Made by a program: the position numbers and the translations under genes. 64,000 nt of DNA, from NCBI GenBank assembly GCA_018992685.1, contig JACVGT010000009.1, positions 36,247-100,246 of the forward strand, given 5' to 3'. Positions 16,881-33,684 of the stretch are shown piece by piece. The notes beneath the pieces are model-generated. The model searched no databases. It was not told where the DNA came from and saw only the letters and a program-made list of their open reading frames with translations. Each line of letters begins with the position of its first letter. Position 1 is the stretch's first letter. This DNA comes from Theionarchaea archaeon. Its GTDB lineage: Archaea; Methanobacteriota_B; Thermococci; Methanofastidiosales; SZ-28-30.

Positions 16881-17046
16881 ATCCTTAATGTTAATCAACA
16901 ATATAAATAGTTTTCGGTAAGCAATAAGATCCAACCAAAAAAATCACGAGTAGAACGGGCTTCCAGCATGAAACCCTAGGAATTCTCACAATCTCTCCGA
17001 AAGATTTAAATGATAGAATGTACAAAGAAAGAGAGAGGTGAAAGAT

Positions 17047-17232
17047 GTGAAATCGAGAAAGATGGCTGTGCTCTTCCTTCTGGCCGTCATCGTTGTGGCG
17101 GGAGTTTTGCCTGTATTGACTGAGACCACTGATTCTTTTGAACAGATCGTTACATCAATACAGGACATAATCTCGCCCATCAGAGGAGATGGCGGAGGAG
17201 GAGGATGGCCCAACAGTGGCGAAGAAGGCTAG
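17047..17232 (+). CDS. Small secreted peptide with Gly-rich tail (peptide 1)
   Basis: TTTAAA at 17005, GAGGTG RBS, GTG start; MKSRKMAVLFLLAVIVVAGVLPV...SPIRGDGGGGGWPNSGEEG; stop overlaps regulator stop (CTAG). Confidence 0.75.
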   Translation: MKSRKMAVLFLLAVIVVAGVLPVLTETTDSFEQIVTSIQDIISPIRGDGGGGGWPNSGEEG

Positions 17233-18164
17233 TACCTTTCCGTGTGGTACATGACAACAATCCCTTTGTAGAAATCTGAGAGAATGGATCTTTCTTTCAG
17301 GGCATATATTGCCTTGGAGAGAGAGATTATCAATGGATCAGTGCGAATATAGATCCATGCCACAAGATAGCTTCCCACTTTGAAAAACATTGGCGTCGTT
17401 GGAAGCAGGCTGAACAACTCTATGAGAGCCTTTTCATAGTCGGTCTTAAACAGGAATACGTATGTGGTATAATTGGCGTACCCTTCTGGATAAAACCAGG
17501 TGTGCGTGGTGGCGAATCGGTCGACAGTGTCCAGCCATTCGTAAAACTTGCGGAAGCTTACATCTTGTTCCCTTACAAGCGGTGCGATTTTGCGCCTGAT
17601 GTCTCCTCCAAAGTCAAGAAAGAATTCCCATTCTTGGTGATCCCAGGGAATGTCCACAGGATTCGAGACCCATGTGGATTTTTTCCAGGAATCACTTTTT
17701 TCTATTTCTTCCAGCAATCGATCTGCACACTCGTTCCATTCCAGAGACGTGGGCTTGGGAGTAAAGAATTCCCCTCGTTCTCCCGAGATGACGATCTTCT
17801 TGAATCCGGGACAATCATCAAACTCCATTCCCGGGTCTCCTGCAGCAACTATCGGGAAGTCTCCGAAGACAACGGCCGAGTAGCTGAGTCTCCTGTTTTG
17901 TCTGAGTCGCTCGAATGCTTTGAAAGGGTCATCAAAATCCAGTACATAGTATATCCTAGGGCTTTTCTTCACAGGTTTCAGTCTGAGACCAGGCCCCACC
18001 ATGATCTGCTGATCCAGCATCTCCTGTAAGGCTTTTGACACAGACTTTCTGTAAATACCCAGAGATTTTGAGATTTCGTATATCTGTGCCCGCGGATTGT
18101 CGTATATTTGACAAAATATCTGGTAGAACCTTTTCTTTTTTTCCACATCGGAGAGAGAGGGCAT
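17229..18164 (-). CDS. Tandem Lrp/AsnC-like winged-helix transcriptional regulator (regulator 1)
   Basis: N-terminal HTH (IYEISKSLGIYRKSVSKAL); paralogous to 29925-30872. Confidence 0.75.
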   Translation of the reverse strand: MPSLSDVEKKKRFYQIFCQIYDNPRAQIYEISKSLGIYRKSVSKALQEMLDQQIMVGPGLRLKPVKKSPRIYYVLDFDDPFKAFERLRQNRRLSYSAVVFGDFPIVAAGDPGMEFDDCPGFKKIVISGERGEFFTPKPTSLEWNECADRLLEEIEKSDSWKKSTWVSNPVDIPWDHQEWEFFLDFGGDIRRKIAPLVREQDVSFRKFYEWLDTVDRFATTHTWFYPEGYANYTTYVFLFKTDYEKALIELFSLLPTTPMFFKVGSYLVAWIYIRTDPLIISLSKAIYALKERSILSDFYKGIVVMYHTERY

Positions 18165-18287
18165 CTTAAAACACCCAACAGTTAAATACCATTCCAGCAA
18201 ATTTGGTAATGTGCCGGAAGCTTATCTTGTAAGAATCTAAGCACAAATTTAAAAGTCTTTCGGCCGATCTTTCACCCCCCCCTAATC

Positions 18288-25867: not shown

Positions 25868-26095
25868 TTACACCGTTCTAGCAAAGTACCTGACAAAAGT
25901 ATCATCTGGCTCAGAACCCAGAAACTCATTTCCTGTCTGTTCACACCAGGCAGGTACATCCCTCTTTGCACCTTCATCATCTGCCCACAATTCAATTATC
26001 TTTCCTGAATCCATTTTTCTCCTCTGTTTGGCCAGTTCCACGATGGGCTGAGGACATACCATACCTCTACTATCCAGTTTTACATCTGATTCCAT
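25868..26095 (-). CDS. tusA: TusA/SirA sulfurtransferase
   Basis: LDSRGMVCPQP, ADDEGA..DVPAWC. Confidence 0.9.
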   Translation of the reverse strand: MESDVKLDSRGMVCPQPIVELAKQRRKMDSGKIIELWADDEGAKRDVPAWCEQTGNEFLGSEPDDTFVRYFARTV

Positions 26096-26183
26096 TCTAT
26101 CACCTCTACTACACAAATGTTCAAAATTCCCATTGATTTTATACAATCGCAAGATTTATAAAAGTTTCGACTTTACTTTGTGC

Positions 26184-26621
26184 ATGGATGAAATCGACAG
26201 ATCAATCTTGAACGTACTCCAGGACAATTCCCGGCTGTCCTTCAGAAAGATCGCCCAGAAGATTGGCGTGACTGCGGCAACAGTCAGTGCCCGGGTGTCG
26301 GATCTGGAGAGCAGGGGTATCATAAAGAAGTACACAGTCCTCCTTGATTACGACCAGCTTGATAAGGAGACCTTGCTCATCACACTGGATGCAGATTTGT
26401 CCCAGATTGACGACATAGTCCAGGCTATGGTGGGGCTCCCAGAAATATGCTGCATTCTGCGGGTTACAGGGAACTTCGACCTAGTGGCGCTGATGAGGTG
26501 TGACGGCCATAGAGGTGCGCGGACGGTCTTGAACAGCATCAAGAGCATACCGGGGGTACGAATGGTGAACAGTCAGATGGTCTTACAGACTCTCCAGGAG
26601 ACCCTGTGTGTGAAAATGTAG
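26184..26621 (+). CDS. Lrp/AsnC transcriptional regulator
   Basis: MDEIDRSILNVLQDNSRLSFRKIA...GIIKKY...VTGNFD. Confidence 0.93.
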   Translation: MDEIDRSILNVLQDNSRLSFRKIAQKIGVTAATVSARVSDLESRGIIKKYTVLLDYDQLDKETLLITLDADLSQIDDIVQAMVGLPEICCILRVTGNFDLVALMRCDGHRGARTVLNSIKSIPGVRMVNSQMVLQTLQETLCVKM

Positions 26622-26629
26622 GTGGGAGA

Positions 26630-26980
26630 ATGAATATTGGTGTTATGGTTTTAGAAGGGCCGTATCAGACAGAAAGTGTGGATACAGCCATACATTTCGT
26701 GGAGGCAGCTCTCGAGAAAGGGCATACAGTAAAAGGGATTTTTTTATTCATGGACGGTGTGTATAACAGTAACAAGCGTGTAAATCCTTCAGGAGAAAGG
26801 AATGTTGTTGCCATGTTAAATGCAGTGGGTGAAAAGGTTCCCGTCACCGCCTGCGCCGCCTGTGCACAGTTTCGAGCAGTGAAAAAAGACACAGTTGCCG
26901 ACAATGTGAGATTGGGCGGTCTGGGAGAACTGGTTAGCCTGGTACAGACATGTGATAAGATTGTTACTTTTGGTGGTTGA
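26630..26980 (+). CDS. dsrE: DsrE/TusD-like sulfur relay protein
   Basis: GPY, IFLFMDGVY, ACAACAQFR, GGLGEL. Confidence 0.85.
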   Translation: MNIGVMVLEGPYQTESVDTAIHFVEAALEKGHTVKGIFLFMDGVYNSNKRVNPSGERNVVAMLNAVGEKVPVTACAACAQFRAVKKDTVADNVRLGGLGELVSLVQTCDKIVTFGG

Positions 26981-26981
26981 T

Positions 26982-27335
26982 ATGAACATCATTCTATTCA
27001 GACAGGCCCCGTATGGAACCTCGTTCACAGGGGAAGGTATCAGGGTCTTGAGCGCGCTGCAGGCATTTGGAGTTTCCAGCAAGGTGCTTTTCGTGGACGA
27101 TGGGGTGTTTGCACTGATGAAAGCACAGAATCCTTCTGCACTGCATATGAGAAGCATAGGAGAGGGAGTGAACATGCTGGAAGAAAATGGGCTGGAACAC
27201 GTTTTGGTGTGCGGAGCGTCCCTGAAGGAACGAGGAATTGATGAGAAGGACTTAATTGATGCGAAAATTACCATTGTGGACAAGAAAGAGGTCGGAAGAC
27301 TGTTGGAACATGCTGGCATCATACTCCCATTTTGA
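26982..27335 (+). CDS. dsrF: DsrF/TusC-like sulfur relay protein
   Basis: APYG, LFVDDGVF, SLKERGI. Confidence 0.85.
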   Translation: MNIILFRQAPYGTSFTGEGIRVLSALQAFGVSSKVLFVDDGVFALMKAQNPSALHMRSIGEGVNMLEENGLEHVLVCGASLKERGIDEKDLIDAKITIVDKKEVGRLLEHAGIILPF

Positions 27336-27360
27336 GGTGAGTCCATGTTATTCATTATCA

Positions 27361-27393
27361 CAGTAGTTCCGAATGTAGAAAATTACTGCACAC
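27361..27393 (+). repeat. Left terminal inverted repeat
   Basis: CAGTAGTTCCGAATGTAGAAAATTACTGCACAC. Confidence 0.95.
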
Positions 27394-27451
27394 ATCTTGC
27401 TAATATCGCAATGTGCTGCTATCAACGAAATGCTCCTTTAGTAGATCAAGA

Positions 27452-27775
27452 TTAGTGTTTTCCCTTGCTAGCCCAAATACCGAGAACTATAGATAAGATG
27501 GAAAGCCAAAGCATTATTAAATAATTGATTTGATCTTCCCTAGGAACTTTCAGTAGGAGAAGAATCCCAATAATAGCTGCTACTATTATAATAATTGACC
27601 ATTTTTTCTCCTTAATACTTGAGAAAGAAAAGATCGGGGTGCCTGCATATTTGTGCAATAAGACCCTATTTTTCTCTTTCAAATCATTTTTTATGGAAGA
27701 TTCCCTCAGTTCTTTAAATTTGAGAATTTCTGAATAGATTACTCTGAGTATATATTGAATATGCTTTGCATGCAT
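27452..27775 (-). CDS. Small 2-TM hypothetical protein (cargo)
   Basis: 107-aa ORF with two hydrophobic helices; start ambiguous. Confidence 0.55.
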   Translation of the reverse strand: MHAKHIQYILRVIYSEILKFKELRESSIKNDLKEKNRVLLHKYAGTPIFSFSSIKEKKWSIIIIVAAIIGILLLLKVPREDQINYLIMLWLSILSIVLGIWASKGKH

Positions 27776-27977
27776 GCAAGCATGATATCACCTCCACTAA
27801 GATTGATTAATTTGCCAATCGTTCTGAGAAAAATCTGGTATAGTTAGTACTAACTTAATATGATAGGAATGCTTCTTTCTGTTTAATAGGAAAAAATGAT
27901 TCAGTTATAGAACCACGTGAATAGTTATATGAAGAAAAGAATCTATAAAAAGCATTTAATAATCGAAAACTTCTTAA

Positions 27978-28403
27978 GTGGTGAACGCGAAGAAGATAAA
28001 TATGTATAAGAACGAAATTTTAGAAATACTCGACACGATGATTCAGTCTTTGACGGAAAATCCCAACCAGTTCGTCTTCCAAGGAGTCAAAGTGACTGGA
28101 TTGAAGTGCATAAATTCGGATGGAGGCACCGGTATGCACATAGTAGCAGGAGCCCCAGGATCTGTAGGAATGAAAGTAACAGCTTCAGCCGAAGACATTG
28201 ATACAAGAGCTATTCAGAATATGAGTAGACAAACAGAGATTAATCAGACGATAAACGCTTTGGAAGAGTTCAGAGCCGAAATATGCAAAGAAAGACCAAA
28301 TATGCCAGTCTTGAGAAGAATCTTGGAAACGGGGGAAAGAGTACTCGCGCCAGTCATTTCAGCGATTCTAATAAAGATGCTTTCATTGTATTCAGGCAGT
28401 TAA
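27978..28403 (+). CDS. Hypothetical protein (cargo)
   Basis: 141-aa ORF downstream of an AT-rich promoter. Confidence 0.65.
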   Translation: MVNAKKINMYKNEILEILDTMIQSLTENPNQFVFQGVKVTGLKCINSDGGTGMHIVAGAPGSVGMKVTASAEDIDTRAIQNMSRQTEINQTINALEEFRAEICKERPNMPVLRRILETGERVLAPVISAILIKMLSLYSGS

Positions 28404-28474
28404 ATGGAAGTGATGAAAATGACTCTAATGGGAGATATCGAATTCGATCAATTGTAGTGAACTCGAATTTATTG

Positions 28475-28915
28475 TTATTTTATCTTCGACAGCAGTTGAG
28501 TCTGTGTGATGTAAATAGGCTCTCCATGACTGTCGTACTTATCTGTCCGAGACGCCATAGTTAGAACTAACTTCAGAGAGAGCTTTTTTCCATCTTCCAG
28601 CTCATACTCATTCCAAGATTCATCAATCGCAGAAAAATCTATATCTTCATCAATTACTGATTCATCAAGCTCATCTATTTCATATTCTCTATCCCCAGGT
28701 TCTCCAAGGAGATTTGGATGAGCCAGTACACCAATTACATTATTTGAGTTAAAATCCATTCTCATTGCTGCTTCATTCTCTTCAACTATTCTGAGCTTAA
28801 CTAAGACATATTTAACTAAAATAATACTGCCATCTTTTAACTTATACCCATTCCAGTTCTCTCTTAGTATTTTATAATTGACAAATCCATACTCTGAGAA
28901 GTCTATCATTTTCAT
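28475..28915 (-). CDS. Hypothetical protein with internal duplication (E.WN.Y.L.DG) (cargo)
   Basis: ENWNGYKLKDG and ESWNEYELEDG repeats; AAGGTG RBS. Confidence 0.75.
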   Translation of the reverse strand: MKMIDFSEYGFVNYKILRENWNGYKLKDGSIILVKYVLVKLRIVEENEAAMRMDFNSNNVIGVLAHPNLLGEPGDREYEIDELDESVIDEDIDFSAIDESWNEYELEDGKKLSLKLVLTMASRTDKYDSHGEPIYITQTQLLSKIK

Positions 28916-28921
28916 TACACC

Positions 28922-29125
28922 TTACACCTCGCAATAATCAATAGTCCCAAAATCGTTCGCATGTATGATCATGGTCTTTGTTCGAAATAGCTCCCTAATG
29001 CCCTTCCTTTCCTTAATGATTTTAGGTTCACAAATCACAAGACTATCGGATTCGATCCTCAAAATGTGGACTACTTTACTATATGACATTGGCAATTCCA
29101 CATTAATTCCTATTGGGATTTTCAT
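28922..29125 (-). CDS. Small hypothetical protein (cargo)
   Basis: 67 aa, translationally coupled with its neighbours. Confidence 0.55.
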   Translation of the reverse strand: MKIPIGINVELPMSYSKVVHILRIESDSLVICEPKIIKERKGIRELFRTKTMIIHANDFGTIDYCEV

Positions 29126-29466
29126 TCCATTACCTTGTAAATGTCAATTACTCCTTTTGCCGTCTTTCTAATGAGATATTTCTTTCCAGAATAGTCCACT
29201 GGATAGAATTTCTCCATTTCCATTCTGTCAATTTTCATTCTAATCTTTCCATCTCTAATAAACACAGGCGAATCAACCATTTGACCAGTTGGAAGTCTAG
29301 TTTGTTGGACAGTCATTAGTACTGCTCTCATAGAAGAGGCTATCGCCTGAAATGATACTTCATGGCCTATCAAAAACTCCCCAGAATTCATAGGACAGCT
29401 TGATGTATTTCTTATTTCGCTGACTTGGTAGTATGGATTCGCAACAGCATGGTTGGAGATTATCAT
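29122..29466 (-). CDS. Hypothetical protein (cargo)
   Basis: 114 aa, first gene of a three-gene minus-strand operon; TATA near 29505. Confidence 0.6.
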   Translation of the reverse strand: MIISNHAVANPYYQVSEIRNTSSCPMNSGEFLIGHEVSFQAIASSMRAVLMTVQQTRLPTGQMVDSPVFIRDGKIRMKIDRMEMEKFYPVDYSGKKYLIRKTAKGVIDIYKVME

Positions 29467-29698
29467 AGAACATCACTTTATGGTAAGACTGCTTTGGTAA
29501 AGTATATAAGCTTTTCTATAATTTTTGGTATCTTCATCTTGAAGATTACAGAATTGATAGGATTTAGTCAAAAAAGAACAGAGAGCCTGAGGGGGGTGAA
29601 AGATTAGAAGTGTTTACAGGCTCCCTGTCGTGCCACTCGGTAAAAATCCTTTCGGCCTCTGTCCGATTCGATTCTTGCGGTACTATGTGAGAAGGTAA

Positions 29699-29827
29699 TT
29701 ATCTCGGAATTTCACCGATGCGAGGATATGTCATTCCTTTTTTCTTTTCTTCTTTTTTGAAATTGTTATCCTCTCCTTCATTGTTTTTCTCCTTTTCCGA
29801 GCCTTCCAGTGCAATTGATTCACCCAT
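29699..29827 (-). CDS. Small charged peptide divergent from regulator 2 (42 aa)
   Basis: AGGAGG RBS; MGESIALEGSEKEKNNEGEDNNFKKEEKKKGMTYPRIGEIPR. Confidence 0.45.
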   Translation of the reverse strand: MGESIALEGSEKEKNNEGEDNNFKKEEKKKGMTYPRIGEIPR

Positions 29828-29924
29828 ATTTCTTCCTCCTATTTTTGTATTGGTTTCTCGAAGAGGTGAAGATTAGGAACCTCTACGATAGCTTTAAATA
29901 GTCACTTGGAATAAGAGATTTACG

Positions 29925-30872
29925 GTGAAAGACATGTGCATTTACTTACCGGATGACTTGAGGAGATTGAATCACTCCATGTATCGCACATTCTTGAAAG
30001 AGCCTCGATTACATACTAAGGATGCAACAGTAAAATGTGGTGCTTCAAGGAACACAATAGCGAAATACTGGAAAGAAGGATTGGAGAAAGAAAAATTCTT
30101 CCCTCCTCAATTACGCCTTAACATGTACAAGAATAGGAAAGAGTACATTTATCTAATACAGAGTGATTCAGCACATAAACTGTATTCTCATTTTCAGAAA
30201 AATCCTGATGTTATTTATATCTCTTACACATCAGGTAAATTTGACCTTTTATTACAGACGAGCAAGCCTCTGGACATACTTCCAGATAGGACAGTTCTTC
30301 ACGGGAGCAGAGGGAACTATATCTTTCCTAGTTTGACTGATTGCTCGTATGAAAATGCTCTTGATAGAATGGAAGCCACGTTAGAAAAAGAGCAAATGCC
30401 ATCGAAAATACCAGTTGAATATCCTGATGAACCTCAAGAGAAAGGAAGTCCTCATTATGGGTGGATGATATATCCATACATTAAATATGATTTAAGGACT
30501 GGATTCACTCCCATCACAAAGAAATTACACATATCCTTTGAATCCTTCTATAAGGGGATTAATTACCTGATGAATGTCTCAACAGTATTGCTTCCATACT
30601 ACCCGCTTGGATTCAGACTATATTCACAGTATTTCCTCGTGTTCTGGTCAGATTATGAGAAATTTCTCTGTAAATTCCTTGGATGTCTACCATGTCATAC
30701 CTCAATAACGAAAGTAAACAACGAAGCATTAGTCATGCTGGTCTCAATCCAGAAAGGAGAAACATTTAGTGAGAGACTATTTCATCTCTTTTTCAAGATG
30801 GTTGATATTGGATTGATTGACCATTTTTGGAGTTCAAAACCTGTCTATTATTGGAGACCAGATTTACCGTGA
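29925..30872 (+). CDS. Tandem Lrp/AsnC-like winged-helix regulator (regulator 2, cargo)
   Basis: HTH (TKDATVKCGASRNTIAKY); shares P.LRL, G.RG, YP.G and DYEK.L...LP motifs with 17229-18164. Confidence 0.75.
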   Translation: MKDMCIYLPDDLRRLNHSMYRTFLKEPRLHTKDATVKCGASRNTIAKYWKEGLEKEKFFPPQLRLNMYKNRKEYIYLIQSDSAHKLYSHFQKNPDVIYISYTSGKFDLLLQTSKPLDILPDRTVLHGSRGNYIFPSLTDCSYENALDRMEATLEKEQMPSKIPVEYPDEPQEKGSPHYGWMIYPYIKYDLRTGFTPITKKLHISFESFYKGINYLMNVSTVLLPYYPLGFRLYSQYFLVFWSDYEKFLCKFLGCLPCHTSITKVNNEALVMLVSIQKGETFSERLFHLFFKMVDIGLIDHFWSSKPVYYWRPDLP

Positions 30873-30995
30873 CTAGCCAGGGCTCCCACCGCTTGAGTCT
30901 CCTGCACCGCATGACTGGTTTCTTTGAATTGTATTCGATGACTCAAAGGGAATTACATTCAATGGTTCAAAGGGCCAACCTTTCAGAAAGTTCAT
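30873..30995 (-). CDS. 40-aa peptide with Cys/Gly-rich tail (peptide 2)
   Basis: GAGGTGA RBS; MNFLKGWPFEPLNVIPFESSNTIQRNQSCGAGDSSGGSPG; stop directly abuts the regulator 2 stop. Confidence 0.7.
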   Translation of the reverse strand: MNFLKGWPFEPLNVIPFESSNTIQRNQSCGAGDSSGGSPG

Positions 30996-31244
30996 ACATC
31001 TTCACCTCTCTTGTATTTTGCAGAACTGATTAAAAATGTTTGGGTAGTTACTGCTTAAGAATGTTAAAATGAAATGTGCAAATCTGTTCTGTCTGTAATT
31101 GGATGGAGACTTCTTGAATAATGCTTATTGTCGATAGAATGAGTATGACACGGAGGGGTCATTCTACTATCGACAAGAATACTCAAGAAAAGTTTATATA
31201 ATAGTACTTGCTCATACTATACATGATACGGAGGTGCATTCAAG

Positions 31245-31469
31245 ATGGTTAGTCAGTTAGAATTAGTTCTTATACTTACCATTATGTCTGCTATAATTGT
31301 AACGCTGATTTTTGAATATTGTTGGGAAAAAATCCCAACAATTAGAGTCAGAACAATAAAAACACGCCTCACGATGAAACAACTGGTTCTAATTGGAATC
31401 TTAGCAGTAATTGTATGTTTCATCTTTTGGTATCTAATTTTCTCTCCTTCTCTTTCATTTCAATTTTGA
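31245..31469 (+). CDS. Small 2-TM membrane protein (cargo)
   Basis: TTTATATA promoter, GGAGGTG RBS, two hydrophobic helices. Confidence 0.6.
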   Translation: MVSQLELVLILTIMSAIIVTLIFEYCWEKIPTIRVRTIKTRLTMKQLVLIGILAVIVCFIFWYLIFSPSLSFQF

Positions 31470-31722
31470 TCCAAGGTATTTCTATTTCTGGTGGTTCTAT
31501 TCCGAAAAAAGACGTGCTAAATATCTTGCCAAGCACAAACATTATTAGAACCGTTGTAATTACAGTACAAAAGAATGCACAATGGAAGAAGATAAGCGAT
31601 TCTCCTTTCCATACCATAATCGCTAATGTTGCACCGTAAAAGAGGATGTAGAATATAAGAAATTCTACTCGCCATTTTTTCGATATTGCCTTGAATGATT
31701 CTATTAGTTCTTTCTTATTCAT
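31420..31722 (-). CDS. Small 2-TM membrane protein (cargo)
   Basis: GGAGGTGA RBS; two hydrophobic helices; converges on and overlaps the previous gene. Confidence 0.65.
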   Translation of the reverse strand: MNKKELIESFKAISKKWRVEFLIFYILFYGATLAIMVWKGESLIFFHCAFFCTVITTVLIMFVLGKIFSTSFFGIEPPEIEIPWIKIEMKEKERKLDTKR

Positions 31723-31798
31723 TATATCACCTCCTATGAATTTTAATTTAGATATGCAAAATGAATATTAGCAAAAAAAGGGTGAGAATCCCCATAGG

Positions 31799-31831
31799 GT
31801 GTGCAGTAATTTTCTACATTCGGAACTACTG
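31799..31831 (-). repeat. Right terminal inverted repeat
   Basis: GTGTGCAGTAATTTTCTACATTCGGAACTACTG, exact reverse complement of the left TIR. Confidence 0.95.
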
Positions 31832-32130
31832 TATCAATACGAGTCTATTTACTTCCCGGTCATTTGAGTCATGCGTGAGCATTGCGGGAACTGATGATAT
31901 CATACTCCTCATTGAGGACGGAGTATATGCAGTACTCAGTGATGTGATTCAACACGCTCAACAAAAGGACATCACGTTGTATGCATTGAAAGCGGACCTG
32001 GAGGCCAGAGGCATTCAGACTCATCTCCCTGTTGTAGACTATGGTGGGTTCGTAGATTTGGTGGAGGAGCATGCTGTGGTAACCTGGAGGTGAACCCACA
32101 AGTATAAAATGATGAAGACCTGGTAAGAGT

Positions 32131-33684
32131 ATGCTTTCACTCTCCTCCATGGATGGCTACAGGACAGGAACCTTCACCTGGAACAAGAAAACAGCACCAA
32201 TTCCTAACCTCCTTACTGTAAGAAATGATGTGGTATACCTTGATGACATTACTATTGAAAGGCCCACAGTGTACGAGAAGGAGGTGAAGACAGAGCTGAG
32301 GACTGCCTCGGTGCTGAGAATTCCCTACACTACACCAAGAAATGTTGCTCTACGATTTACCAGGAAGAATATCAGCCTTCTATCTTCGGGGGTTGAGGTA
32401 TATCCCTTGTACATTACGAAGTATGATACGCTAACGACCGATTTCCTCTCCAAGATTCCTTTCCATCACGTATTTTTTGTATTCTGCCCGGAAGAGAGGA
32501 GACTTCTCCGCACACTCTTCTATGTGCGGAACGCCTATCCCCGTTCTCTCCTCTATACATTAGCTGAACCTGAAGAAATACCCGTCCTCCTCACAGCAGG
32601 TGTAGATCTTTTCAACTACACAGTAGAAAATGAAGAGGCACTCCGCCGGGTTCTGGAGAATCCCACCAAGGAATACCTCGAAAAAGAATGCAATTCAACC
32701 GTGAGGACAAAAAGACTGCTTCGACTGTTATACAGAGAGTTCTATGAAAGTATTGAAAAGTATACCGCATTCAAAAGAAAGAAAGAGCTGTACATTTCAG
32801 AGGATGCTTTGTATAGGCCTGAAGTCAGGAGGTTTCGCCAGAGAGTCAGAGAGCGCTACACACCTCCTTCTCACGTTGTTGTGTTGTTCCCCTGTTCTGC
32901 AAAGAAACCCTATTCTCAATCCCAATCTCACCGAAGACTCAGGACAGCCATCCCCAGGAATGGTGTCCTGACTGAACTCATACTCACTTCTCCCCTGGGA
33001 GTCGTCCCGAGAGAGCTGGAAGACTTTGCCAAGTATGATATACCTGTTACAGGCCACTGGTCTCATGAGGAAGTTATGGAGACTGCTTCTCTTCTCAATG
33101 ACATTTTGGCAAAGATACCACATCCAGTTGTGTATTCCCACGTATCCACTGCATACCAGCCCATTATAGAACAACTCCAGGTTCCTGTAATTGATACGGC
33201 AGAGGGCAACCCCCTCTCTGAACAGTCCTTGACTACCCTCGCCTCCCATCTTCAGGATCTGGACAGGACTCCCTTTCTGGAACGGAAAATGAGAGCCATC
33301 TCAAAATTCCTATTTCATGAAGATATTTTCCCCGGAAAGATCTCCGTGACCGGTAGAAGAACCAAACTCATTAGGTCGGACAAGGTGCTTGCCAGGTATT
33401 CTTCAGATCTCATTCTCGCCCAGGCAGGGGCTGAAAGGGTAACGACCTACTGCGTGACCGTAGATTTTGATTTGAGAGGGGATGTCTTCTGTCCGGGAGT
33501 CCTCTCCGCCTATTCTGGAGTTCGACCAGGGGATCAGGTTGTAATAAAAAGGATTATAAATGGAGAGCATGCAGTAGGTGTGGGTAGAGCAGTGCTCCCC
33601 GGATTTATGATGAGAAAAATGGACCGCGGAATGGCAGTCAAGGTGCACACGAGGTTTCACTATGCAGGAACGAATAACTGTTGA
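32131..33684 (+). CDS. arcS: Archaeosine synthase (ArcS/TgtA2-like, DUF5591 + PUA)
   Basis: PCSAKKPYSQSQSH, LTSPLGVVPRELE, YDIPVTGHW; C-terminal PUA. Confidence 0.85.
   Translation: MLSLSSMDGYRTGTFTWNKKTAPIPNLLTVRNDVVYLDDITIERPTVYEKEVKTELRTASVLRIPYTTPRNVALRFTRKNISLLSSGVEVYPLYITKYDTLTTDFLSKIPFHHVFFVFCPEERRLLRTLFYVRNAYPRSLLYTLAEPEEIPVLLTAGVDLFNYTVENEEALRRVLENPTKEYLEKECNSTVRTKRLLRLLYREFYESIEKYTAFKRKKELYISEDALYRPEVRRFRQRVRERYTPPSHVVVLFPCSAKKPYSQSQSHRRLRTAIPRNGVLTELILTSPLGVVPRELEDFAKYDIPVTGHWSHEEVMETASLLNDILAKIPHPVVYSHVSTAYQPIIEQLQVPVIDTAEGNPLSEQSLTTLASHLQDLDRTPFLERKMRAISKFLFHEDIFPGKISVTGRRTKLIRSDKVLARYSSDLILAQAGAERVTTYCVTVDFDLRGDVFCPGVLSAYSGVRPGDQVVIKRIINGEHAVGVGRAVLPGFMMRKMDRGMAVKVHTRFHYAGTNNC

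Follow-up and report, generated by a model that had tools for sequence, protein, structure and literature searches.

How does a gene-dense segment that encodes no transposase come to lie, bounded by perfect inverted ends, within the coding sequence of dsrH/tusB? The question is raised by contig JACVGT010000009.1 of the marine-sediment Theionarchaea archaeon (assembly GCA_018992685.1), of which a stretch of 64,000 nucleotides, hereafter the window, was analysed; coordinates refer to the window unless another contig is named. We read positions 27361-31831 (4471 bp) as a non-autonomous DNA transposon derived from the ISH3 family of insertion sequences (IS) and carrying passenger genes, in other words as an archaeal mobile insertion cassette (MIC), and put the probability of this reading at roughly 85%. 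Directly observed are the ends, the target duplication, filled and empty alleles, sister elements, the lack of an internal transposase and the fold of the regulator model.

A repeat search returned two arms of 34 nt (27360-27393 and 31799-31832) that are 100% complementary and consist of a 33-nt terminal inverted repeat (TIR) plus one base of the target duplication. With up to three mismatches allowed, the window contains the 33-mer at exactly two positions, against 0.00 expected from 100 shuffles. Both ends start with CAGT and are accompanied by a 5-bp duplication, which is the published ISH3 signature: in the accessible part of the family description, ISH3 is defined by CRGT ends, direct repeats of 4-5 bp (typically 5) and archaeal hosts (PMC2266710), in line with what the first-pass annotation, made from the letters alone, had taken as established. 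Further inside, a 10-mer (TTGCTAATAT, 27397-27406) has its complement at 31765-31774, 36 and 57 nt from the tips, respectively. The element has a GC content of 36.2%, below that of its 5-kb flanks (47.1%) and of the genome (46.7%). Ten open reading frames (ORFs) of 40-315 aa are packed inside, most with a Shine-Dalgarno-like GGAGG/GAGGTG upstream; the cargo genes begin about 60-110 nt from each tip, and what flanks them are the 33-bp ends, with no complete IS copies. The perfect TIRs, the TATCA duplication, the extra inverted 10-mer, the AT-rich interior and the count of about ten small genes had all been described in the first-pass annotation and are confirmed here.

The point of insertion lies after codon 5 of dsrH/tusB. 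In-silico excision of the element together with one TATCA gives an open 90-codon frame from ATG 27345, the downstream part of which matches Pfam DsrH (PF04077, E 7.7e-21); the earlier claim that precise excision restores this gene is thereby upheld. The same place was inspected in a genome of the same genus (G046), where dsrH is uninterrupted after dsrE/dsrF and the flank matches at 77% identity over 753 nt. With the insertion, dsrH loses its native start codon. The remainder of dsrH can be read in frame from an ATG within the element, at 31761, which opens a 110-aa hybrid ORF (31761-32093, plus strand) with the DsrH domain whole; the insertion may therefore not abolish the DsrH protein, and dsrH may perhaps not be fully silenced if the element end has outward transcription.

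Fourteen public sequencing runs, with no RNA run listed among them, match parts of the stretch, and contigs of four of them (X1, X3, X4 and X11) were compared with it; parts without coverage in X3, X4 and X11 were not taken as evidence. The exact empty site, a joint of 27355 to 31832 for which the first-pass annotation had proposed to map reads, is present in contigs of two of the four runs, X4 (1311 nt, depth 48, with 959 and 352 nt on the two sides) and X11 (depth 4.7); contigs of X1 and X3 have no such joint. The 4476 nt skipped equal the 4471 bp of the element plus five, and these five bases fit either side, i.e., the joint is the precise pre-insertion sequence. Interior pieces were also recovered at 100% identity in X3, which comes from another study (27367-28233, 31223-31416 and 31387-31645). 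The insertion is recent enough that the population retains the empty allele. The recent movement proposed earlier is borne out by the identical ends, the intact duplication and these empty-site contigs. One further X4 contig (depth 17) joins 31774 to 27361 in the same orientation, with unknown letters between and a short side of 33 nt; this could be a junction of abutted ends or a circle, a tandem copy or a variant element.

Mobilisation in trans, as put forward in the first-pass annotation, presupposes further copies of the TIR, and these were found on other contigs of this genome (C1, C3, C5, C6 and C22; the assembly is 91% complete). A degenerate TIR pattern had ten genome sites at two mismatches or fewer, with 0 sites for a reversed-pattern control. 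Two of the sister elements are complete: C6:22720-26068 (3349 bp, two mismatches per end, duplication ATTCT) and C1:158682-165215 (6534 bp, duplication CGGTA). The right TIR of the C1 element is identical to that of the window element in 33 of 33 positions, and its left end has seven differences. Four further ends are solo or decayed (C3:134904, C5:179141, C5:39850 and C22:4154, the latter with its tip mutated to TAGC). Beyond this genome, the pattern was present in only two genomes, both of the same genus, out of 100 others drawn from the class, and the matches in these two lie near contig ends. A scan for CRGT-type inverted pairs with exact 12-nt tips, which by design misses the C6 and C1 pairs (their tips differ), found a duplication only at the window element. 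The palindromes at the offset of the left subterminal near-palindrome differ between copies, that of the C6 element being a perfect TTGCGAA-T-TTCGCAA. Two classes of ends can be distinguished: in one, a short palindrome at +37 to +52 varies in its letters from copy to copy and retains its symmetry; in the other, GGAGGTGA(T) is combined with an inward-reading gene within 60-110 nt. The sole PADLOC result concerned a Zn-ribbon ORF of the C6 element, with weak matches to LmuB.

A partner transposase, likewise presupposed by the earlier proposal, was identified on the C1 element. Two adjacent ORFs of 188 and 204 aa constitute a frameshifted ISH3-type DDE transposase; by a wide margin, the best NCBIfam model for both halves is ISH3 transposase NF033541 (E 6e-11 at model positions 2-109 and E 1e-24 at 129-297), and the second ORF matches Pfam DDE_Tnp_1. 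An intact 400-aa homologue that is 93% identical to the C1 copy, P0084, comes from a metagenome protein collection, where it has ten member sequences. Compared with P0084, the C1 copy is frameshifted after ‘...RYMTVC’ and its last eight or so codons are divergent. Both proteins carry YRNRWTVETSYR, that is, the motif Y-(2)-R-(3)-E-(3)-R given for the transposases of ISH3 members, which measure 1225-1500 bp, in the accessible text of the family description (PMC2266710). In the genome, a search with P0084 matched contigs C1 and C5 only and found nothing in the window element. The 3′ end of the C1 transposase gene becomes a degenerate TIR (23/33, counted by hand), after which the sequence is 79% like the subterminal region at the C5:179141 end. 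Two more ORFs of 361 and 519 aa, the latter with an AAA_assoc_C domain, are encoded on the C1 element. Judging from this arrangement, the 6.5-kb C1 unit may be a nested structure, with a second TIR-bounded cassette (the 361- and 519-aa ORFs) lying within the 3′ end of the transposase gene; the whole would then have moved by means of the two outermost ends.

Several observations weigh against our reading of the window element, and the first of them concern the junctions. In X1, the likely source run, the flank contigs enter the TIR by just 29 nt at each junction and then stop, and interior contigs begin 5 nt inside the element end. These contigs stop in the TIR because the 33-nt repeat exceeds the contig word length; the junctions are thus supported by the assembly, by the duplication and by the contigs of the empty site. 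The first-pass annotation had named reads that fail to span the junctions as a sign of misassembly; in the likely source run the contigs cross each junction by those 29 nt, which falls short of a full bridge. The empty-site allele is in turn an insertion polymorphism and does not demonstrate excision. The contig breaks, along with the fact that several related elements have the same ends, favour an assembly artefact, in which the interior was misplaced between solo ends or the junctions derive from different molecules. Such an artefact is scarcely credible to us: each flank has the same 5 bp, and joined together the two make a single frame whose orthologue is intact; ordinary reads are longer than a 33-nt repeat, so that an assembler can bridge it; and in the best-matching run interior pieces are 100% identical and the piece 27366-29599 has a depth of about 29.5, as against 30-35 for the flanks.

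The remaining adverse points concern the transposase and the reach of the ends. This assembly, 91% complete, gave no intact cognate transposase: its sole copy is frameshifted and has a TIR-like end. None was found by the P0084 search in 33 other genomes of the order, nor by the ISH3 profile in three close relatives, and a P0084 locus search of metagenome contigs gave pattern candidates, none of them confirmed. With the ISH3 profile, the C1 copy scores 92.8 + 42.3 bits and so falls short of the curated cut-off (225), so that the C1-type transposase would be a distant ISH3 member at best. The degenerate TIR pattern had 0 exact matches in two large contig collections (genome and metagenome). The lack of an intact transposase could be taken to mean that the element was moved once by a then-intact C1-type transposase and is now an immobile relic stranded in this lineage, all the more as the two same-genus genomes yielded no cognate transposase and as the TIR sites on C3, C5 (two) and C22 are solo or decayed. 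We nevertheless hold this to be decidedly unlikely, as the 33/33 ends, the intact duplication and the empty allele in related samples speak for very recent activity, and an intact transposase of 93% identity exists in nature; the TIRs of the sister genomes lie near contig ends, and insertion sequences are commonly absent from metagenome-assembled genomes.

Could the element encode its own means of transposition? Nine of the ORFs were compared with Pfam (E ≤ 0.1), PHROGs and PADLOC and five with NCBIfam, the 40-aa ORF (pep40) being left out of the family scans; no transposase, integrase, Cas1 or PolB was recognised, in agreement with the first-pass annotation. A casposon, a provirus and an integrative element were also considered and rejected, as no Cas1, PolB, integrase or capsid-like family is present. 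The sole large ORF, o315, was the candidate for a cryptic transposase. Its start was placed at GTG 29925 in the ORF list, and the family alignment and a Shine-Dalgarno-like GGTGA favour ATG 29937. The AlphaFold model (predicted local distance difference test, pLDDT, 93.8; alignment of 44 sequences) has two repeats, each of a three-helix helix-turn-helix (HTH) unit and a beta-alpha-beta domain, i.e., an HTH followed by a RAM-like alpha/beta domain twice in tandem, as in Lrp/AsnC-type regulators, a likeness at the level of fold only. The top Foldseek match is NirDL (4ch7, E 4.5e-7, over the whole length, at about 10% sequence identity and a TM-score of 0.46), followed by many Lrp/AsnC regulators, single chains of which match one half each. 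No nuclease or recombinase domain is seen in the model, and o315 has no Pfam (E ≤ 0.1), NCBIfam (0.05) or PHROG family, so that it is not a member of the Lrp, NirD or AsnC families of Pfam. The two-fold repeat of HTH and RAM-like domains is shared with the siroheme decarboxylases NirDL/AhbAB and the Lrp/AsnC regulators; unlike the former, o315 has no haem-pathway context, and its identity to them is about 10%. The model makes a DNA-binding regulator of tandem Lrp/AsnC-like type the most likely role of o315.

The o315 family is strongly expanded in one genus: in a profile search, matches numbered 23 in this genome, 20 in the congener G046 and 27 in the congener G054, with one each in two further genomes of the order and none in the other 29. 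This transposase-like abundance, the occurrence of o315-type genes in at least three TIR-bounded or TIR-adjacent copies and the lack of any Pfam, NCBIfam or PHROG assignment would suit an autonomous element in which o315, or one of the small internal ORFs, is a transposase of a new kind. That is highly improbable given that the model has the NirDL and Lrp/AsnC fold rather than an RNase-H fold, and that most o315 paralogues adjoin no TIR. Moreover, the C1 element transposed with a 5-bp duplication and yet has no o315 homologue, CAGT ends with a 5-bp duplication are the signature of the very DDE family found beside identical ends, and the other ORFs do not exceed 146 aa.

The non-autonomous reading can then be set against known kinds of mobile DNA. 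The window element resembles ISH3 members in its CAGT ends, 5-bp duplication and archaeal host, and the partner transposase carries the family motif; ISH3 members, however, are typically 1225-1500 bp long with one transposase gene, whereas the element has ten ORFs and none of them a transposase, and the partner transposase scores below the ISH3 cut-off. Lacking a transposase of its own and being 4471 bp long, it is therefore a derivative of the ISH3 family and not an IS. MITEs (miniature transposable elements with inverted repeats), known in archaea such as Sulfolobus, likewise derive from IS, are non-autonomous and have IS-type ends as well as target duplications, but are short (a few hundred bp) and non-coding, in contrast to this long and gene-dense element. 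In the accessible part of a review, transporter IS and composite transposons are described as carrying passenger genes with IS-type machinery (PMC3129680); the former retain their transposase, and the latter are flanked by two whole IS copies, where the window element has only 33-bp ends.

Of the known kinds, the mobile insertion cassette comes closest; the same source, as far as its text is accessible, defines it as an IS-derived, gene-carrying unit without transposase that is activated by a cognate transposase (PMC3129680). The window element is bounded by IS-family inverted repeats (33/33 with the end of the transposase-bearing C1 element), carries ten ORFs of passenger genes without a transposase, and has moved as a unit, as seen from the 5-bp duplication and the empty-site contigs in two of four runs. 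Like the classic case MIC231 and other cassettes of IS231 (IS4 family, Bacillus cereus group), it combines IS inverted repeats and passenger genes with the lack of a transposase and a presumed movement in trans. Trans-mobilisation of MIC231 has reportedly been tested. MIC231 differs in its firmicute host and IS231-type ends (CAT..., 10-12 bp), as opposed to an archaeon, CAGT and a 5-bp duplication, and also in cargo, which here comprises a regulator, two peptide genes and small membrane proteins. The window element may thus be described as an ISH3-based MIC of an archaeon, with a regulator and peptide genes as cargo.

Passenger-carrying transposons drive the spread of genes in bacteria and are barely documented in archaea. 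In the accessible text of a review of the IS4 superfamily, modular passenger DNA is known only for IS231 (PMC2266710); that of a 2019 survey states that passenger-carrying composite transposons were not detected in archaea (PMC6563490), and that of a 2026 census of archaeal IS mentions ISH3 expansions and MITEs and has no ‘passenger’ wording (PMC13343696). The literature searched, which did not extend to most subscription journals or supplements, gave no description of an ISH3-derived cargo cassette, nor of transposons in Theionarchaea/Methanofastidiosia. The locus offers filled and empty alleles, sister elements that carry other cargo and an identifiable type of transposase, and with these it can be tested directly whether cargo is mobilised in trans in an uncultured lineage of archaea.

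For the movement of the cassette, we infer supply of the transposase in trans and cut-and-paste chemistry, and for the cargo we infer its function. An ISH3-type DDE transposase, of the type that is broken on C1 and intact as P0084, would bind the 33-bp ends and perhaps also recognise the short palindromes just inside them. Cut-and-paste by way of a hairpin is the route taken by IS4-type relatives. The cassette would be excised or copied and inserted at a 5-bp staggered cut, and repair of the gaps would yield the TATCA duplication. The cargo comprises a three-gene module (o42, o315 and pep40) and six small genes, several of them for membrane proteins. The coordinates of all features are given in Table 1.

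Table 1. Features of the cassette and its target gene (window coordinates)
Feature	Position	Strand	Evidence and remarks
dsrH/tusB, 5′ stub (start codon + four codons; last 5 bases are the left TATCA)	27345..27360	+	intact orthologue in G046
Target duplication TATCA, left copy	27356..27360	.	read in sequence
Left 33-bp TIR, starts CAGT	27361..27393	+	repeat search; related copies elsewhere in genome
Subterminal near-palindrome TTGC..GCAA, contains 10-mer TTGCTAATAT	27397..27411	.	function putative
o107, small predicted membrane protein	27452..27775	-	no family above threshold; Shine-Dalgarno-like GGAGGTGAT upstream
o141 (alternative ATG 28002)	27978..28403	+	sub-threshold DUF5869, E 0.0067, 16.7 bits vs cut-off 25
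o146, large uncharacterised family, all-beta internally duplicated predicted fold	28475..28915	-	pLDDT 96.9; no Pfam
o67, in same-strand run o114-o67-o146	28922..29125	-	no family
o114, overlaps o67 start by 4 nt	29122..29466	-	no family
o42 transcript, 3′ untranslated part, terminator-like	29571..29698	-	13-bp hairpin + U-run; four-copy alignment; no Rfam match
o42, 42-aa charged peptide, divergent from regulator	29699..29827	-	four copies; MGESI N-terminus and TYPRIGEIP C-terminus invariant
o315, tandem (HTH + RAM-like) x2, Lrp/AsnC-like	29937..30872	+	predicted fold; likely transcription regulator
pep40, 40-aa peptide, convergent with and abutting o315 stop	30873..30995	-	N-terminus MNFLKGWPFEPL conserved, ...GGSPG end
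o74, small predicted membrane protein	31245..31469	+	absent from deletion variant (31090->31544; C5 copy)
o100, small membrane protein	31420..31722	-	starts about 110 nt inside right end behind GGAGGTGAT
Subterminal 10-mer, right-hand copy (complement)	31765..31774	.	read in sequence
Right 33-bp TIR	31799..31831	-	repeat search
Target duplication TATCA, right copy	31832..31836	.	read in sequence; empty-site contigs
dsrH/tusB, remainder	31837..32093	+	Pfam DsrH PF04077, E 7.7e-21

Besides the cassette itself, the locus points to lineage-expanded tandem Lrp-like regulators paired with small peptide genes, to our mind its more intriguing part. About 20 relatives of o315 were also found in the genome by tblastn, and a wider search gave 83 matches, all to hypothetical proteins of Theionarchaea/Methanofastidiosia metagenome genomes; a locus search of the genome contig collection with the o315 alignment gave pattern candidates, none of which was confirmed. 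Approximately five of the 23 or so family copies in the genome adjoin TIRs of the type described here. The first-pass annotation had suggested that cassettes of this kind are how the peptide-regulator module spreads: carriage with TIRs stands for those five, and for the remaining copies it is presumed. At C5:179141-180170, a TIR is followed by transposase codons 5-58, joined directly to the C-terminal half of an o315-type gene (residues 159-313) and a pep40-type gene; the order of these pieces suggests a deletion chimera in which transposase and regulator may once have belonged to one element.

Both peptide genes of the module recur. The o42 gene with about 130 nt downstream is 87-94% identical among the copies on C14, C6 and C22 and that in G046, while the regulators next to the C14 and C6 copies share only about 25% of residues. 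The ratio of non-synonymous to synonymous polymorphism (pN/pS) of o42 is 0.16-0.58 in six of six pairs, and its TYPRIGEIP motif has four synonymous and zero replacement changes; o42 is under purifying selection. The 3′ untranslated part (about 95%) is more conserved than both the coding part and the adjoining regulator, and this region could itself be a small RNA. All four one-sided changes in its hairpin are A-to-G and keep G-U pairs on the minus strand only; support for the hairpin is weak, coming from four sequences with no double compensatory change. A plus-strand structured RNA upstream of o315 was considered and rejected, since the variation fits pairing on the minus strand only. An Rfam scan of 27000-32200 at E ≤ 1 gave no match.

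Five genomic copies of pep40 share MN(F/V)LKG(W/Y)PFEPL and a Gly-rich end of ...GGSPG type and vary at third codon positions, with GAGGTGA as ribosome site. Eight of 19 paralogue loci have a small ORF convergent with the regulator that ends within 44 nt of the regulator stop and has a Gly-rich tail; three of these eight peptides have a signal-peptide-like N-terminus and the others start with MNFLKGWPFEPL or similar. One of the signal-peptide-like type is encoded in the window itself at 17038-17232 (plus strand), beside an o315 paralogue at 17229-18200 (minus strand), and further tail-to-tail loci are C17:63666-64490, C6:23962-24762, C19:6492-7519 and C18:14829-15638. Segments bearing the peptide genes reach a summed contig depth of 81-673 in X1, X3 and X4, compared with about 30-84 for flank bins in X1 and X4 (X3 hardly covers the flanks), and the boundaries of these segments are sharp at 29570 (three runs) and 31060. 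A module reused in many element variants would give such a depth pattern.

A bolder possibility is that the peptide-regulator-peptide module is more than inert cargo and serves the transposon family as a control or communication circuit. One or both peptides would be the signal perceived by the regulator, whose targets would be the subterminal palindromes or its own divergent promoter. We rate this as rather unlikely. If true, a peptide signal would be linked to transposition or cargo expression, an archaeal counterpart, borne on a transposon, of the peptide signalling of phages and plasmids, and the 20-27 copies per genome with diversified Gly-rich peptides would be a lineage-specific family of peptide-sensing regulators seeded by cassettes. 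A complex prediction for o315 and o42 scored 0.02, which counts neither for nor against binding.

Among the other cargo genes, o146 has a large family, of which 601 representatives were counted at E ≤ 0.001 (50% clustering), mostly of 140-170 aa; it sometimes forms the C-terminal domain of proteins of about 420-510 aa, and these longer relatives have no Pfam domain. The o146 model had no convincing match in Foldseek PDB, VIA wide (best Z 3.8, Pur-alpha) or BFVD, and only unnamed archaeal clusters in Atlas. For o100, a homologue (83% over 60 aa) occupies the same position in the partial copy at C5:39850. Contigs of X1 and X3 contain a joint of 31090 to 31544, with 453 nt skipped and six other letters between, which matches a deletion variant at C5:39850-40400 that is without o74.

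Outside the element, the host genes upstream of dsrH (25868-27335) are a TusA-like ORF, an Lrp/AsnC regulator and two genes of the DsrE/DsrF family, and the gene that follows dsrH encodes a DUF5591-PUA protein (32131-33684). By gene content, the host cluster is a predicted sulfur relay adjoining a tRNA-modification-type gene.

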